64,000 nucleotides of DNA, taken from sequence record MT150133.1, one strand, 5' to 3'. The stretch comes from Enterobacteria phage vB_EcoM_IME540. A program made the position numbers and the translations under genes. The notes below the pieces were generated by a model. The model was not told where the DNA came from. It saw nothing but the letters and a program-made list of their open reading frames with translations, and searched no databases. The stretch's first letter is position 1. Each line of letters begins with the position of its first letter. Shown here piece by piece: positions 3,742 through 25,627 of the stretch.

Positions 3742-4635
3742 TTAAAGGACCACGTCCTCATAACTTGGCATTTCGTGCTCAGAATGGATGTGGGCACCGA
3801 AATAAATGAATTCAGCCAGACCAGGATGGAATACTAAACTGGGATTCTCATGATAAATGATATGAGGTCTTGATTTCAGAATCTGATAATATTCAACCTT
3901 ACTCGGTTTGAATTTAATAATCTCTACATCAGGACGATGGTCTTCACGCTTAAATGAATCATTCGGATCGGTGATATAAAGGCGAGAACCTTCAGCCGCA
4001 GCTTGGTCTACAACTCTTTCGAATTGATAGCATTTATCTGAGATACGGAATGGATGGAAAATACCATCAATTTTAATAGGCGCTAGACCTTCAGAGTAAC
4101 GCTCAATTACTGCGGGATTAATTACCTTTTGGTCTACAAAAATCTTATCAGAGGACGCACCTCGTGACACCAGGACGTCTTTCTGACATTGATTCAAGAC
4201 TGTAGTATAAATCGAACGTTCAACTGAGGACACGTCGGTATCAATAAACTCGTCGATATAATAACGAGGAACTTCAGGGTCCATTGTAATGTTAAAGTTG
4301 AATTGTACAGTCTGAGTGCCATCATAACCTGTGATATCGGTTACCAATCCTGAGCAGTCATAGTATTCGATTAACGAATCAACAACGAACTCGTTTTCAG
4401 ACCAAAAATGTTTACGAGTTTCATAAGCATTTTCTTTATACCAAAGCGGTACAAAATTCAGTTCAGGAAATAATTCAATGCATTCTTTGATATCGCTCGA
4501 ATTTCTAGGATAAGCCAGATAATCACCTGGGCAAGCACGGTTTAAATGGAGTTGAAAATTACCGTCCTTAAGGACGGCATATTCACCTGTTTCGTAACTA
4601 CGCATACTGAAAATAGGAACGATAAACAAACTCAT
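3742..4635 (-). CDS. hypothetical protein (297 aa) at the T4 beta-gt position
   Basis: long ORF translationally coupled to gene 42 (ATGA overlap at 4632-4635); no resemblance to T4 beta-glucosyltransferase that I can recognise. Confidence 0.6.
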   Translation of the reverse strand: MSLFIVPIFSMRSYETGEYAVLKDGNFQLHLNRACPGDYLAYPRNSSDIKECIELFPELNFVPLWYKENAYETRKHFWSENEFVVDSLIEYYDCSGLVTDITGYDGTQTVQFNFNITMDPEVPRYYIDEFIDTDVSSVERSIYTTVLNQCQKDVLVSRGASSDKIFVDQKVINPAVIERYSEGLAPIKIDGIFHPFRISDKCYQFERVVDQAAAEGSRLYITDPNDSFKREDHRPDVEIIKFKPSKVEYYQILKSRPHIIYHENPSLVFHPGLAEFIYFGAHIHSEHEMPSYEDVVL

Positions 4636-5330
4636 TTCAGGAATCCTCGAACGTAGTCAAAATCACGTTCAAATACGTGTGCACTAACCATAGTATGGGA
4701 ATACGTACCCAGACCAACACCACACTGTTCAGCAATAAAGGCCATCAGTTTACCCTGCAGATAGAAATCCAGCTGCATAACAATAGCACAGTTCTGTGAA
4801 CGCATATGGGTATGTGCATAAAGACGTCCATCACGAATATAATATGTCACTGAATCAGTACATGGATATTCTAAGGATTCGTCAGAATCAAGGAGGGCTT
4901 GGTCTTGTTCTTGGAGAATTTGGAACACAACTCGTCTTGAGTTAGGCTTCTCTTTAAGCTCTTTAAGTAAGGCTGGGAGTTGGGCCACAATTCTAGGTCC
5001 ATAGAAAGTGTTGAAGTTTGCAGGCAATACGTCACTTTTCGGCTTATCAATGAACTTAGCAACATTAGGGTATTCCTTAAATGCTTCGGCGGCGTCAGTA
5101 CCACCAGAAATCATAAACTTCCAGAAAGATTCGGCATAATCATAGTTGATACGATTAATACGAGGGTCGGTGAATTTATAGGTGCTTGCATCCAGTACTT
5201 CTACCGAAGCAGAACCAATTTCATAACAACAGCCGATACGAGAATCAACTGCAAACTGTGGAGCTTCCAGGATTTCTTCGTTCATTTGCTTAAACGCGTT
5301 TTCAAAACTAACAGCGGTAATGTGTTTCAT
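4632..5330 (-). CDS. 42: dCMP hydroxymethylase (thymidylate-synthase fold)
   Basis: 232 aa; PCTDSVTYYIRD and RSQN motifs parallel T4 gp42 CTNTVQYLIRD / RSND; syntenic with T4 gene 42. Confidence 0.8.
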   Translation of the reverse strand: MKHITAVSFENAFKQMNEEILEAPQFAVDSRIGCCYEIGSASVEVLDASTYKFTDPRINRINYDYAESFWKFMISGGTDAAEAFKEYPNVAKFIDKPKSDVLPANFNTFYGPRIVAQLPALLKELKEKPNSRRVVFQILQEQDQALLDSDESLEYPCTDSVTYYIRDGRLYAHTHMRSQNCAIVMQLDFYLQGKLMAFIAEQCGVGLGTYSHTMVSAHVFERDFDYVRGFLK

Positions 5331-5863
5331 TTATTCACCTTATTTTCAATATATTCATTCAGACGTTTTAATTCTACCATATCGACGTTAAGCAAGTTAT
5401 TATGGCCGTCGTGATTTAAGATTTTAAACACGTTTTCAAAACATGTTTCATATTGCCGGATAGTTAGGTTGAACTCATCTTTGGTTAATTTAATAAGGTC
5501 ATCTTCAAAGTCTTTATCCAGTGGATTACGGGTTAAAATAACCTCAATAATATTGAATTCAGATTTAAACCCTTTCCAATCTTCCAGTTCTACATAAGGG
5601 TCCATTTCACCACGAAGGAATCCAGAGTAAACAATATTACTAGGATACCCACGGTCTAAGATGTAGACAAAATTAGGGTCTAAAAACTTATACAACGTCT
5701 CGACTAAAGCCTTGTCATTATCAGTCCCTAATGAAATGCATTTGCCATTAATCTTTTTAGGGAAATCAATAAGACGATATTTCTTATCAGATAAAAGTGA
5801 TTCAATTAAAGTAGACTTCCCGGAATTATCCGGGCCGTCGATAACAATGATTTTTGGTTTCAC
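5327..5863 (-). CDS. P-loop kinase, thymidylate-kinase-like
   Basis: Walker A IVIDGPDNSGKST and TMK-like DRGY motif (YILDRGYPSNIVYSG); 178 aa. Confidence 0.65.
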   Translation of the reverse strand: MKPKIIVIDGPDNSGKSTLIESLLSDKKYRLIDFPKKINGKCISLGTDNDKALVETLYKFLDPNFVYILDRGYPSNIVYSGFLRGEMDPYVELEDWKGFKSEFNIIEVILTRNPLDKDFEDDLIKLTKDEFNLTIRQYETCFENVFKILNHDGHNNLLNVDMVELKRLNEYIENKVNK

Positions 5864-6234
5864 GGATGATATGCCTTATAGGTTTCAAGAGTTCCTTCAC
5901 GAACCATTTCTTTAAAGTGGTCAGGACGGATTGCTCGGTCATCGATGATAAAAGTATAACTCGGCTTATGTGTAAGCAGATTGTGATATTTCAATCCAAT
6001 CTTTTCAAGGTTCTTAACTAATGCAGGAACTACTTCAACCAAGATTCGACCTGGGCCGCATGAAGTCATACCACGGGCAGTGAACAAGGTAATCTCGTAC
6101 CCTTCATCATAAAGCTTATTAATCACGGACACCATTTCGGTGTCCGGTTTAAAGTTTTCGTAATCACGGTCATCTTGCCAGTGAGTAATGGTATTATCGA
6201 TATCAAAACACAGATGCATTAAATTTTCTTCCAT
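5860..6234 (-). CDS. HAD-superfamily phosphatase (small, capless)
   Basis: all four HAD motifs: FDIDNT, LFTAR, HKPS, FIIDDR; alternative ATG at 6219 couples to upstream stop (TAATG). Confidence 0.65.
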   Translation of the reverse strand: MEENLMHLCFDIDNTITHWQDDRDYENFKPDTEMVSVINKLYDEGYEITLFTARGMTSCGPGRILVEVVPALVKNLEKIGLKYHNLLTHKPSYTFIIDDRAIRPDHFKEMVREGTLETYKAYHP

Positions 6235-7892
6235 TGTTTGTGGAGTTCGGTAGAACCTGTAGGTTTATATTTTACACCAGTTTCCTGGTCAAGCAAAACC
6301 CACTTATCAGGACAACGAGTGATAATTTGAGCCGTGATAGGGTCGCGAACTTCATCAACGAATTCACCTGTGATAAGCTTACGCTTACGAGGATGCCGCT
6401 TCAGCAGCACACTCAGTTGATATAGCCCATTGTAATAAGCGCCCAGAGCTTTCAGAGGGTTATTTTTAAAGTAACCTGCCAATGCCATCCAGATAACAGC
6501 AATCCAGAGCTTGTGCTTAAATGTACACATCGGAATATCATCTAAAGGCATAACCTTTTCAATATCAACGAATACACGAGTTCCGTTACGAGTTAAGCCA
6601 CCCCATAGAGGGTCAGAGTTAAATTTGTCATAACCATCGATAGAATAAAGCACCTTAGCTTCATCATAAATCGCAGGGCCTTTAGAACTATTACCAAAAT
6701 AACCACGTGGGTCGATGATTTTAATATTACCTTCGTCCGACAACATAATATTACTGTAGTGCGGGTCGCCATGAATAAGTTGGTACGGTTCTTTATGTTC
6801 AGACAGAATTTCTAAGGCGTGACGAAGAAGTTTTTCTGGGTCGCCTACCTTGAAGTCGTTAACATGGGTAATACCCTGTGGAGCAAAGCCTTCAATCAAT
6901 CCGGCAATAGAAGCATTACGAATAAGGACCTTGTCCAATACTTCTTTCTTAACATCAGAATACCATTGCTCATCGGATGGATTATCGATAGTTCCACCGA
7001 ATGAACGTAATGCACTAATGACCTTATAAACCATGAGGACTTTAGTTTCTTTAGACATAAACCGATAGGCGTCTGCCATGGTGCGACCAAAGATACGTTC
7101 CATTTTAATGAATTCACCTGGAGCAAAGTCTACAATGCTAGGAACGAATTCAGAATCAATAGAATTGTACCAATTGATTTCTTTAGATTGGATTTCTTTA
7201 CCTAATTCGTTTGTAGGTACTTTAATAGCTAGATTCTCAGTGAACTCTAATTTATTAAATTCACGGTTAATTTCAGAATCTTCATGGGCCTTAGCCAGTT
7301 TCAGTTTGTCACCAACATCAACTACAAAGTCTAACTTACGTTCAGTCAAATGGACCATTGAATCCAGGTTGTCAGCAAGGTCTTCACCATAATTAGAACG
7401 GTCGAAACCTGTCCAATTAGCCACCTGATACAAGCCAACTACGCCACCACCGGTACCAATTTCACGCAAGTACGGTTCTTCAAATGTAAAACGACAGTCA
7501 GTCCCATAGGTATAACAGTAGTCGTTATCCCACTCAACTTTATGACCTTCAGGAATAATATCACACCAGTTAAACAAGACATTGTGCCCAATGATATCTT
7601 CGGCAATGCAATCGATAGCATGAGCCGAACCATTGGCAACATCAACGTTACGAATAGTGAATTTAGGCTTATCACTATTAATCATGTTAATGGATTTAAT
7701 ATAGCCTTTAACGAGGTCGTTAAATTTGCTGTGAATAACCAGAATAATTTCATCTGATTGATTACTATACAAATCATACAAATGTTTTAATACAGTATGT
7801 TGTTTGTAGTTAACCAGTACCTTCGGGATTTCGTTGGTAATTGGATACAACCGTGAGCCAAGACCCGCGCCTAAAATAACAACCTTTTTCAT
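6219..7892 (-). CDS. bifunctional nucleotidyltransferase (N-terminal) / APH-ChoK-like kinase (C-terminal)
   Basis: N-terminus VVILGAGLGSRL (sugar-1-P/LicC-type NTase glycine loop); C-terminus LIHGDPHYSNIM...IIDPRGY (Brenner HGDxxxxN kinase motif); start trimmed to MKKVVILG with GAGGAA SD. Confidence 0.7.
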   Translation of the reverse strand: MKKVVILGAGLGSRLYPITNEIPKVLVNYKQHTVLKHLYDLYSNQSDEIILVIHSKFNDLVKGYIKSINMINSDKPKFTIRNVDVANGSAHAIDCIAEDIIGHNVLFNWCDIIPEGHKVEWDNDYCYTYGTDCRFTFEEPYLREIGTGGGVVGLYQVANWTGFDRSNYGEDLADNLDSMVHLTERKLDFVVDVGDKLKLAKAHEDSEINREFNKLEFTENLAIKVPTNELGKEIQSKEINWYNSIDSEFVPSIVDFAPGEFIKMERIFGRTMADAYRFMSKETKVLMVYKVISALRSFGGTIDNPSDEQWYSDVKKEVLDKVLIRNASIAGLIEGFAPQGITHVNDFKVGDPEKLLRHALEILSEHKEPYQLIHGDPHYSNIMLSDEGNIKIIDPRGYFGNSSKGPAIYDEAKVLYSIDGYDKFNSDPLWGGLTRNGTRVFVDIEKVMPLDDIPMCTFKHKLWIAVIWMALAGYFKNNPLKALGAYYNGLYQLSVLLKRHPRKRKLITGEFVDEVRDPITAQIITRCPDKWVLLDQETGVKYKPTGSTELHKQWKKI

Positions 7893-7952
7893 TATCTGTT
7901 CCTCAAGTGAATGTAGGTACATTATACACTATTTTTAATAAATTGGTATTGC

Positions 7953-8453
7953 TTAAATCTTATCTTTACCGATTTCAATACACTGTTCTATTGCCGCCGG
8001 TGCTTTGGTCTTGAGCTTATCGATTTGTTTCTTATAATCACGAGCTTTACCGAAGCTCTCGGTTTCGAGCATTTCGTAATAACGAGCCTCGTGGATGGAA
8101 ATCTGTAGATTGATATGGTTTACGCACATCGCATACAGTTTCTGCTTTTTGTACAAATCATCTTGACGCTTCATTTCTGCCTGGTGTTTGGCTAGTACCG
8201 CTTCACGCTTGGACTCTTGTTCACGTTGGAATTCGATTTCTTGTTGAGCATATTTTGCACAGTTATTACCGCATTGATTATTAGCTCGGGTGTACACAAG
8301 TCCAGAACCTGCACGGAATTTCATTTCGCCATCGAATTGTTTCTGTTCAGCTGCGATACGAGCTTTACCAACTTCATCGGCCGAAACTGTATCACCATAT
8401 TGGACCGCGCAACCTGATAGGAGCATACTCATTGCGATAATTAACTTTTTCAT
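7953..8453 (-). CDS. lipoprotein (signal peptide + lipobox LLSGC)
   Basis: MKKLIIAMSMLLSGC lipobox; charged coiled-coil-like mature part; adjacent to imm. Confidence 0.65.
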   Translation of the reverse strand: MKKLIIAMSMLLSGCAVQYGDTVSADEVGKARIAAEQKQFDGEMKFRAGSGLVYTRANNQCGNNCAKYAQQEIEFQREQESKREAVLAKHQAEMKRQDDLYKKQKLYAMCVNHINLQISIHEARYYEMLETESFGKARDYKKQIDKLKTKAPAAIEQCIEIGKDKI

Positions 8454-24488: not shown

Positions 24489-24673
24489 AACTCCACCATA
24501 AATTCAAATAGCTGGCCATGTACACAGGTATCAGTCCAACCCCATTCGTTGGCTTCTTCTTTTAACCAATCCGGGAGATTTGCCAATACGGTTTCTTTAC
24601 TAGGCGCAGGAGTATTAAACTCACTTGCAAACTCTCTTGCGCAGGTTTCATAAGCTGTATCAAATTCGGTCAT
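24485..24673 (-). CDS. hypothetical protein (62 aa)
   Basis: coupled ORF (ATGA overlap). Confidence 0.45.
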   Translation of the reverse strand: MTEFDTAYETCAREFASEFNTPAPSKETVLANLPDWLKEEANEWGWTDTCVHGQLFEFMVEL

Positions 24674-24831
24674 TTAAAGTTCCAGAATGAAGCACCAACC
24701 AGAAATAAAGGCCAACAAATCATAGACGTCAGCCACCAACAAAAATCACCGGAATCATCTAATTTAGCTAGGGTCTTAGCATAACCAATACCGATGATAA
24801 GATACAAAACAACCAACATTAATTCAATCAT
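24670..24831 (-). CDS. small membrane protein (53 aa, below ORF-track cutoff)
   Basis: ATGA overlap with the nrdC stop; two hydrophobic segments. Confidence 0.4.
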   Translation of the reverse strand: MIELMLVVLYLIIGIGYAKTLAKLDDSGDFCWWLTSMICWPLFLVGASFWNFK

Positions 24832-25091
24832 TTGAAATAAGCTCGCAGTCGGTCAAAGCCACCAATAGAAGTTCCGTCCGGAGCAAATACCTGAGGCATA
24901 GTCAAACCTACCTGAGATTCGCGACCAAGAGCAGTCAAGAGTTCAGCAATCTTCTCATCATCAAATACACCTTTTTCCGGCATCACGTTAATGAATTCGT
25001 AAGGTTGTTTCTTAACATCAAGCAGACGTTTGGCATTATCACAGAAAACACAACGGTGGATATTTGAATCGTAACCATAAACTTTAAACAT
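24828..25091 (-). CDS. nrdC: thioredoxin/glutaredoxin NrdC
   Basis: 87 aa; MFKVYGYDSNIHRCVFCDNAKRLL... near-identical to T4 NrdC, CVFC active site. Confidence 0.9.
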   Translation of the reverse strand: MFKVYGYDSNIHRCVFCDNAKRLLDVKKQPYEFINVMPEKGVFDDEKIAELLTALGRESQVGLTMPQVFAPDGTSIGGFDRLRAYFK

Positions 25092-25092
25092 T

Positions 25093-25329
25093 TTAAATTC
25101 CTAATATTTGTTTGAATGCTTCAGAACGGTCGAGTTCTGTTCCATATTTTTCCATGTGCTCATATTTTAAATTATACACATCAGATAGTATATTATTATA
25201 CGAGCGAGTTAAAGCAGATTTTAAAACTGAATAACTGTCTGGGAATTTACCATGCTCTTTATAATAAGCTAGGGTAAGTTCGCGGACCGCCTTATCGGCC
25301 GCCTCTACATATTCTTTGCGCTTTGCCAT
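25093..25329 (-). CDS. hypothetical protein (~78 aa)
   Basis: start trimmed to MAKRKEY; N-terminal extension in the ORF track looks non-coding. Confidence 0.4.
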
Positions 25330-25627
25330 TTTCGTCTCGCTCAAATCGGTGTTTACAATGACGGCATTTGTAACGAAGATTACTAGTCTGCCAATGGACC
25401 AATTGGACCTGTTCTGTACCGCACTCAGGACAGTTAGGAACATCCTTAGAAGCTTGTTCTCGTCGTGCGACCATAGCCATTACAGCATCCCAATTAACGG
25501 CATCACCATAATCATCACAACCATGAATTTTACCAACCAATTCAACTTCAACATCCTCGGCTTTAATAAATTTCAATAAACCAGTATTAGATGCTGAAGC
25601 AATATCTTCAGCTAAACGTTGTTTCAT
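25292..25627 (-). CDS. zinc-ribbon protein (111 aa)
   Basis: CPECG...CRHC four-Cys motif. Confidence 0.5.

Follow-up and report, generated by a model that had tools for sequence, protein, structure and literature searches.

A predicted GT-B glycosyltransferase in the beta-glucosyltransferase slot of Enterobacteria phage vB_EcoM_IME540, candidate for the first arabinosylation of 5-hydroxycytosine

Which enzyme occupies the place of the T4 beta-glucosyltransferase in Enterobacteria phage vB_EcoM_IME540? The stretch of DNA analysed here (the window, 64,000 nucleotides of record MT150133.1) carries on its minus strand a 297-aa ORF (3742..4635, ATG start and TAA stop), which a preliminary description, made from the sequence alone, had correctly placed without giving a strand. 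The gene order in the window is uvsX, 297-aa ORF, thymidylate synthase (TS) homolog, kinase, HAD, kinase/nucleotidyltransferase, a 166-aa ORF, an imm-like gene and 43. Comparison with the order in the T4 record (uvsX, segA, b-gt, 42, imm, imm.1, 43) bears out the claim that the ORF lies in the beta-gt slot. The lack of likeness to the T4 beta-gt sequence, also pointed out in that description, holds as well: homology to T4 beta-gt was rejected (BLASTP E 5.7, HHalign probability 0.2%).

The family to which the ORF belongs (phrog_3891) and the role proposed for it are already in the literature (2025-2026 papers), with the activity predicted. Arabinose in RB69 DNA was described by Thomas et al. 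2018, with ORF003c proposed as the transferase. Lee et al. (NAR 2026, PMC13326640) reported that this arabinose is ether-linked to 5-hydroxycytosine (5hoC) and that the TS homolog gp48 produces the 5-hydroxy-dCMP; RB69 had earlier been assigned 'hmC', which has since been corrected. In the same work, RB69 gp46:47 and DLP3 gp79 are named 'arabinosyltransferase 1' and hypothesised to act as the initial transferase; later arabinose units are attached to the DNA by RB69 gp3 and DLP3 gp76/77, and the Dhakaviruses are among the genera with a syntenic cluster (PMC13326640). The separation of gp46 from gp47 is put down there to a sequencing error within a single gene, and the frame break between the two is indeed visible in the RB69 record. 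The 297-aa ORF is 63% and 69% identical to gp46 and gp47; it is the ortholog of the protein named by Lee et al., and its family and proposed role are therefore published. Arabinosyl-5-hydroxycytosine itself is a recently recognised modification that reportedly shields phage DNA from type II restriction, from the Brig1 glycosylase and from certain CRISPR-Cas systems. It is in turn a target of BrxU and other type IV enzymes. The present analysis adds a prediction of mono-arabinosylation for the Dhakaviruses, the finding that profile libraries miss the family, the invariable presence of an Asn-signature TS homolog near it even in very distant phages, the acidic character of the family, and its fusions to kinase and HAD domains.

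A block of five coupled genes

The ATG of the 297-aa ORF (4635-4633) shares bases with the TGA stop (4634-4632) of the 232-aa gene upstream. This ATGA overlap of start and stop (4632..4635, minus strand) had been noticed earlier and indicates translational coupling to the TS homolog. At this overlap the minus strand reads ...GAGGATTCCTGAAATGAGT...; a GAGGA motif resembling a Shine-Dalgarno sequence precedes the ATG by 8 nt. The phrog_3891 profile matches residues 1-296 (E 4.6e-158), homologues were found in 350 phage records, and 117 homologue clusters (90% identity) start at the same N-terminus. Moreover, 24 positions are invariant in an alignment of 40 family sequences. Judged by its sequence, the ORF is a real gene. 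WG01_42 of Escherichia phage WG01 (genus Dhakavirus), which is 99.7% identical to it, is annotated as 'hypothetical protein', and so is the family in nearly all of 40 records sampled from the 350.

All five genes of the block overlap start to stop, by 16, 4, 4 and 4 nt, and they form one tightly coupled block for this reason. The most upstream gene (6219..7892, minus strand) encodes a bifunctional protein of 567 aa, with a sugar-1-phosphate nucleotidyltransferase at the N-terminus and an APH-type kinase at the C-terminus (Pfam NTP_transferase and APH). It is a homolog of RB69 gp52:53 (41-44% identity to gp52/53) and of HY126 AfhE. The start of this gene is likely the ATG at 7892, though the longest ORF reaches 7922; phrog_4098 matches from residue 11 (E 5.5e-269), GAGGA precedes the ATG at 7892, and a 1674-nt gene is annotated in WG01. 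The gene that follows (5860..6234, minus strand) encodes a 124-aa HAD phosphatase, a homolog of RB69 gp51 (62% identity) and of HY126 AfhF, whose best NCBIfam match is TIGR01689 capsule biosynthesis phosphatase (E 2.3e-14). In HY126, AfhE and AfhF convert arabinofuranose-5-phosphate to UDP-arabinofuranose, according to the summary of He et al. in PMC13326640. By homology, the 567-aa kinase/nucleotidyltransferase is proposed as the maker of UDP-arabinofuranose, and the HAD protein as an arabinofuranose-1,5-bisphosphate 5-phosphatase, the latter from what is summarised of the HY126 work.

Next in the block is a 178-aa P-loop, thymidylate-kinase-like nucleotide kinase (5327..5863, minus strand), whose GTG start overlaps the stop of the HAD gene. 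It is a homolog of RB69 gp45 (37% identity) and matches phrog_761 (E 2.4e-39), with weak Pfam and NCBIfam kinase matches. In RB69, a TMPK-like kinase gene lies after the glycosyltransferase (GT) gene, whereas in the window the kinase gene precedes that of the synthase.

The 232-aa product of the gene directly upstream of the 297-aa ORF (4632..5330, minus strand; Pfam Thymidylat_synt) had been called gene 42. This name does not hold: the protein shares only 25% identity with T4 gp42, against 78% with RB69 gp48, the 5-hydroxy-dCMP synthase. The diagnostic motif reads MRSQN in the 232-aa protein and in RB69 gp48 and MRSND in T4 gp42, with Asn against Asp at what we take to be the position of D169 in E. 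coli ThyA (the T4 and RB69 sequences being those of database records). Asn at this position is the signature of a 5hodCMP synthase according to Lee et al. (PMC13326640). Similarly, the 232-aa protein matches the solved phage enzymes PDB 9iqu/9iqc/9ir2 at E ~1e-124 (9iqu 1.7e-124), against 4e-6 for T4 gp42 (1b49). By signature and similarity, the protein is of the 5-hydroxy-dCMP synthase type and not a T4-type hydroxymethylase.

Several RB69 genes have no homolog in the window, namely gp49, gp50 (U32-like), gp55 (arabinose-5-phosphate isomerase) and the second GT gp3. Since the isomerase gp55 is among them, arabinose-5-phosphate would have to be supplied by the host; in E. coli it is made by KdsD and GutQ. 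The GC content of the five-gene block equals that of the window (0.39), so that a compositional sign of recent acquisition is absent. When the surroundings of the block were scanned for promoters and terminators, the yield was no richer than that from shuffled sequence, and we make no claim on transcription signals for this reason.

Predicted fold and conserved residues

Sequence profiles say little about the 297-aa protein. None of 40 phrog_3891 family members matched a Pfam glycosyltransferase family at E <= 1, no NCBIfam glycosyltransferase model was matched by the family, and Pfam gave no functional match for the ORF alone. No nucleotidyltransferase match was obtained in Pfam or NCBIfam either, and a PDB profile search with the family came back empty. 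A profile search of 1.84 billion representatives returned only 241 relatives. With all sequence-profile routes empty, the fold is known only from structure prediction.

Remote homology and structure prediction had been suggested as the way to decide between a GT-A and a GT-B fold, and of the two methods it was structure prediction that gave an answer. The confident predicted structure has the GT-B fold, with two Rossmann-like beta/alpha/beta domains and an inter-domain cleft. The top structural matches of this model are all UDP/NDP-sugar glycosyltransferases or the related UDP-GlcNAc 2-epimerase. T4 beta-glucosyltransferase has the GT-B superfold too. The 297-aa protein shares with it the slot downstream of a TS-superfamily gene and, presumably, the transfer of a sugar onto a C5-oxygenated cytosine; close structural similarity to T4 b-gt was not found for the model.

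In the 40-sequence alignment, R197 (in the motif FRISD), K246 and H270 are invariant in the C-terminal half, and E275 is kept acidic, being Glu, or Asp in four members. The invariant residues of the N-terminal domain include R12, S13, D24, G25, N26, N69, R74 and N113. The candidate donor-binding residues among these were placed by eye against the predicted secondary structure. The EX7E motif of GT4 enzymes was not evident in the alignment when read by eye. The equivalent segment of the ORF is VFHPGLAEFIYFG, with the invariant His270 and an acidic residue five positions later, not eight.

The bacterial retaining GT4-type GT-B enzymes (sucrose-phosphate synthase 6kih, BshA, MshA, PimA and WaaG) are 8-16% identical to the 297-aa protein, which is about 60-100 residues shorter than they are. 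It also differs from them in that no family member matches Pfam Glycos_transf_1 or Glyco_transf_4, in having H270-x4-E275 in place of EX7E, and in its predicted acceptor, which is a nucleobase hydroxyl. The protein is likewise unrelated in sequence to RB69 gp3 (HHalign probability 0.3%), DLP3 gp76/77 and the HY126 glycosyltransferase (PDB 9iqz). The gp3-type proteins, in which a GT4-type N-terminal domain can be recognised, have about 366 aa; it is they that put the second and third arabinose on the DNA.

Transferases and sugar counts across phages

The gp3-type transferase was found in 212 phage records. It is present in one copy, at >=95% identity, in Mosigvirus-type coliphages, and at <60% identity in Acinetobacter phages (two copies in the listed records) and in one Tegunavirus record. 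No Dhakavirus or Shewanella phage is among the 212 records, and in WG01 nothing but two small ORFs lies in the rIIA-39 slot. The phrog_3891 family, with its 350 records, is the wider of the two, and it would be the transferase common to all such clusters.

The numbers of sugars reported go in step with the numbers of transferases. Thanatos, with a phrog_3891 family member alone, is reported to be mono-pentosylated, its DNA carrying one pentose on a hydroxylated cytosine. RB69, NP and Bas46/47, with a family member and one gp3-type GT, are mono- and di-arabinosylated, and tri-arabinosylation is reported for DLP3; related Acinetobacter phages (Maestro among them) have two gp3-type copies. This parallel makes the phrog_3891 family the best candidate for the addition of the first sugar, and the family probably sets the base-proximal linkage. 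As a Dhakavirus lacks the gp3-type second transferase, a single arabinose per cytosine is expected. The DNA of this phage group is accordingly predicted to be mono-arabinosylated, in contrast to the di- or tri-arabinose of RB69 and DLP3 DNA. With one transferase only, and with host arabinose-5-phosphate, the Dhakaviruses would offer a minimal system for the first arabinosylation step, be it on DNA or on the nucleotide.

The association with the TS homolog extends to distant members of the family (30-40% identity). On contigs of 356 kb, 383 kb and 42 kb these lie beside a TS homolog and a kinase, some with SIS-isomerase and APH-kinase genes. The GT gene adjoins the TS homolog or is one gene away in the loci L007, L009 and L011 and in Thanatos, and the TS homologs of all four have the motif MRSxN. 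Thanatos resembles the window in that the TS homolog is followed by the GT, and in having a single GT in the genome.

Fusions were also found among the relatives. At least eight carry an N-terminal HAD-like domain (DFDGIF...ITGDST), and at least nine, among the 24 long proteins in 150 listed representatives, join the GT to a P-loop kinase (LEGFDRIGKD), in both domain orders. The fused kinase partner matches Pfam Thymidylate_kin (E 1.2e-4) and the profile of the cluster kinase (HHalign probability 81%, E 1.3e-5). The HAD-like partner matches a 207-aa gene of L007; against the 124-aa HAD of the window the HHalign probability is 0.3%. Single-sequence phmmer searches of the fusion partners against the kinase and HAD proteins of the window gave no match.

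Proposed pathway and competing readings

We consider it probable that the 297-aa protein is a compact, sequence-divergent GT-B glycosyltransferase, and that its most likely role is to add the first, base-proximal sugar in the DNA-hypermodification pathway that leads to arabinosyl-5-hydroxycytosine. The choice of 5-hydroxycytosine as acceptor and of arabinose as sugar follows from the 5-hydroxylase signature upstream and from the neighbours of the UDP-arabinofuranose pathway. The 232-aa TS homolog would convert dCMP to 5-hydroxy-dCMP, as suggested by its 78% identity and its signature residue; this synthesis is established in the literature for its RB69 and DLP3 orthologs. The 178-aa kinase, with host or phage kinases, would then bring the product to the triphosphate, for incorporation by the polymerase. 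Separately, the 567-aa protein and the 124-aa HAD may make UDP-arabinofuranose from host arabinose-5-phosphate, by homology to HY126 AfhE/AfhF. The 297-aa protein would bind UDP-Araf in its C-terminal Rossmann domain, with R197, K246, H270 and E275 as likely donor-binding residues (placed by eye), while the N-terminal domain would present the 5-OH of 5-hydroxycytosine for transfer of the arabinose. The product is probably an alpha-arabinofuranoside, made by a retaining reaction like that of GT4-like enzymes; an alpha linkage has been proposed for the base-proximal sugar by Lee et al. (PMC13326640). If T4 is a guide, the 5hoC that receives the arabinose probably lies in replicated DNA.

The individual DLP3 glycosyltransferases, gp79 included, had no activity on 5hoC-containing DNA with UDP-Araf or UDP-Arap (PMC13326640). 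In the literature covered here, PMC13326640 and PMC12838424 among it, there is no report of arabinosyl transfer by any phrog_3891 family member. The preliminary suggestion of a replacement DNA glycosyltransferase stands as regards the enzyme class, through the GT-B model and its UDP/NDP-sugar enzyme matches, but not as regards DNA, which is not established as the acceptor over the nucleotide. Indeed, Lee et al. cannot tell a first arabinosylation on the mononucleotide from a post-replicative one (PMC13326640).

Arabinosylation of 5-hydroxy-dCMP (or of the di- or triphosphate) by the 297-aa protein before replication, after which the TMPK-like kinase would act on the sugar-bearing product and the polymerase would insert it, is an alternative that we regard as unlikely. 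The protein has a net charge of -18.6 and the family a median pI of 5.2, against 9.05 for T4 beta-gt, a strong acidity that is unusual for a DNA-binding role. Net charge is, however, a crude proxy for DNA binding, and RB69 gp3, whose DLP3 homologs act on DNA, has a pI of 6.3. The N-terminal, acceptor-side domain of this acidic protein has the conserved basic residues R12, K23, R33, R74 and R124, and the gene is translationally coupled to that of a hydroxylase acting at the nucleotide level. An extra nucleotide kinase comes straight after the GT in two cases with confirmed homology, RB69 and L007, and probably also in L009 and Thanatos, but it could equally simply be a 5hodCMP kinase. The GT-kinase fusions, known in both orders, point the same way; HAD-GT fusions also exist, however, which shows that steps not following one another can be fused in this pathway, and the kinase fusion therefore counts for little as a sign of arabinosylation of the nucleotide. 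In addition, the later arabinose additions happen on DNA, as noted above. To our knowledge, all characterised phage base glycosylations are post-replicative, as are those by the T4 alpha- and beta-GT. Taken together, acidity, coupling to the hydroxylase, the dedicated kinase and the fusions leave arabinosylation before replication a minority reading. If it were true, arabinosylated dCTP would be incorporated by the phage polymerase, and we know of no earlier case in which a base was glycosylated in the nucleotide and not on DNA.

The remaining readings change the reaction or the substrate. TH1_063 of the Shewanella phage Thanatos, 52% identical to the 297-aa protein over the full length (E 1e-97), formed UDP-xylose in vitro when given UTP and xylose-1-phosphate (PMC12838424), and did not transfer to DNA, dCMP, dCTP or cytosine, which are acceptors without a 5-OH (PMC12838424). 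Its authors assigned it as a UDP-xylose pyrophosphorylase, at odds with the GT-B fold and with the arabinosyltransferase proposal. The 297-aa protein could accordingly make the activated sugar (as a UDP-pentose pyrophosphorylase or a phosphorylase-like enzyme) while another protein transfers it. Some GT-B enzymes do use sugar-1-phosphates or run in reverse, such as the GT35 phosphorylases and the GT4 trehalose phosphorylase. This role is nevertheless improbable, since the fold is GT-B and not that of a nucleotidyltransferase, and a nucleotidyltransferase is encoded nearby: the 567-aa protein has a genuine NTP_transferase domain, and its HY126 homolog is reported, in the summary of that work, to make UDP-arabinose. 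The same reading would leave Dhakavirus and Thanatos with no transferase candidate, and the TH1_063 assay would also fit a GT that binds UDP-pentose and runs partly in reverse. A further reading, a GT-B-like UDP-sugar-modifying enzyme of the 2-epimerase type (for example a UDP-pentose-tailoring epimerase or hydrolase) and not a transferase, we regard as very improbable. Finally, the earlier proposal of another hmC-modifying enzyme, here taken as a non-orthologous enzyme that stands in for beta-gt and would glucosylate hmC in DNA or modify it in some other way, has the shared slot and the GT-B fold of the T4 alpha- and beta-GTs in its favour. It is scarcely tenable against the other evidence. 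The upstream enzyme, only 25% identical to T4 gp42, has the 5-hydroxylase signature (R-S-x-N, not the R-S-x-D of T4 gp42), the neighbours would build a pentose nucleotide, UDP-arabinofuranose and not a glucose donor, and orthologous clusters yield arabinosyl-5-hydroxycytosine, the 'hmC' of RB69 having been corrected.

If the 297-aa protein is the first arabinosyltransferase, the modification would be predictable from sequence, by the combination of a phrog_3891-family GT and an Asn-signature TS homolog. Serratia phage 92A1, the DNA of which is reported to contain arabinosyl-5hoC, has a phrog_3891 family member.

The overlapping block and its thymidylate-synthase homolog

The 297-aa ORF at 3742-4635 (-), encoding the GT-B-fold candidate for first arabinosyltransferase of 5-hydroxycytosine (GT), belongs to a block of five consecutive genes joined by start/stop overlaps at 3742-7922 (-). 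The order is kinase/nucleotidyltransferase, HAD phosphatase, P-loop kinase, thymidylate-synthase (TS) homolog and GT. The overlaps are 16 nt between the first two genes, 4 nt (GTGA) between HAD and P-loop kinase, and 4 nt (ATGA) between P-loop kinase and TS homolog. The ATGA overlap (4 nt) said in the preliminary description to couple GT to its upstream neighbor was confirmed. A 77-nt gap separates the end of GT from uvsX, and the GC content of the block (0.39) is the same as that of the whole window.

That neighbor (4632-5330, (-)) had been named gene 42, an assignment that must be replaced by the 5-hydroxy-dCMP-synthase type: it carries an MRSQN motif, with Asn at the ThyA D169 position, and is 78% identical to RB69 gp48 but only 25% to T4 gp42. 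It also matched PDB 9iqu/9iqc (E 1e-124). Based on the signature, the gp48 identity and the PDB match, the modification made by this phage is probably 5-hydroxycytosine and not hmC.

Comparison with RB69 and gene boundaries

In a comparison with the RB69 locus (L004), no homolog of RB69 gp55 (arabinose-5-phosphate isomerase), gp50 (U32-peptidase-like), gp49 or gp3 (second GT) was found within 1-64000 of the window. Dhakaviruses thus seem to have a pared-down form of the cluster, with arabinose-5-phosphate presumably supplied by the host KdsD/GutQ. The GT gene is still divided into ORF046c and ORF047c in the RB69 RefSeq record (NC_004928, 24597-25497; L002/L004), and in BFVD each half is entered as a "protein" of its own. 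Translation of 24597-25497 stays in frame for ~180 codons before a shift occurs, in agreement with the sequencing error to which Lee et al. (PMC13326640) attribute the split.

For the 567-aa kinase/nucleotidyltransferase gene, the longest ORF starts at 7922 (-), but the true start is probably the ATG at 7892 (-). A GAGGA motif precedes this ATG by 7 nt, and a start here agrees with the annotated WG01 protein (557 aa); the PHROG and Pfam matches to the 567-aa ORF begin nearby, at residues 11 and 13, respectively. Between this sugar-nucleotide gene and an imm-like gene lies a 166-aa ORF (7953-8453, (-)) that matches phrog_1754 (function unknown) and corresponds to WG01_47, annotated "hypothetical". 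Its N-terminus, MKKLIIAMSMLLSGC, looks like a lipoprotein signal.

Fusions and distant relatives of GT

Among metagenomic GT relatives, nine have a P-loop, thymidylate-kinase-like domain fused on either side of GT (P0206, P0221, P0226, P0242, P0245, P0248, P0211, P0201, P0223). Eight others carry an N-terminal HAD-phosphatase-like domain (P0131, P0145, P0151, P0158, P0171, P0172, P0191, P0215), which matches a 207-aa gene of contig L007; no match to the 124-aa HAD of the window was found.

Flavodoxin_2 (flavin reductase-like) genes occur near GT and an Asn-signature TS homolog on two contigs, both >350 kb (L007, 1978-2523; L009, 6426-6932), in keeping with the flavin dependence that has been reported for the hydroxylase. 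A UDG-family gene also adjoins in L007. P0117 (31% identity; L008), the relative that has diverged furthest, may serve a different modification system, since no TS homolog was found within 10 kb of it. In the region 9496-13220 of L008 it is flanked by a small AAA/P-loop protein on one side and by faint Peptidase_U32 and Exostosin_GT47 matches on the other, with a PolIII-alpha gene adjoining this neighborhood. Finally, other Serratia phages, namely Muldoon (BFVD A0A5P8PH66) and SP1, carry family members that form a very distant branch (20-23% identity, TM 0.76).
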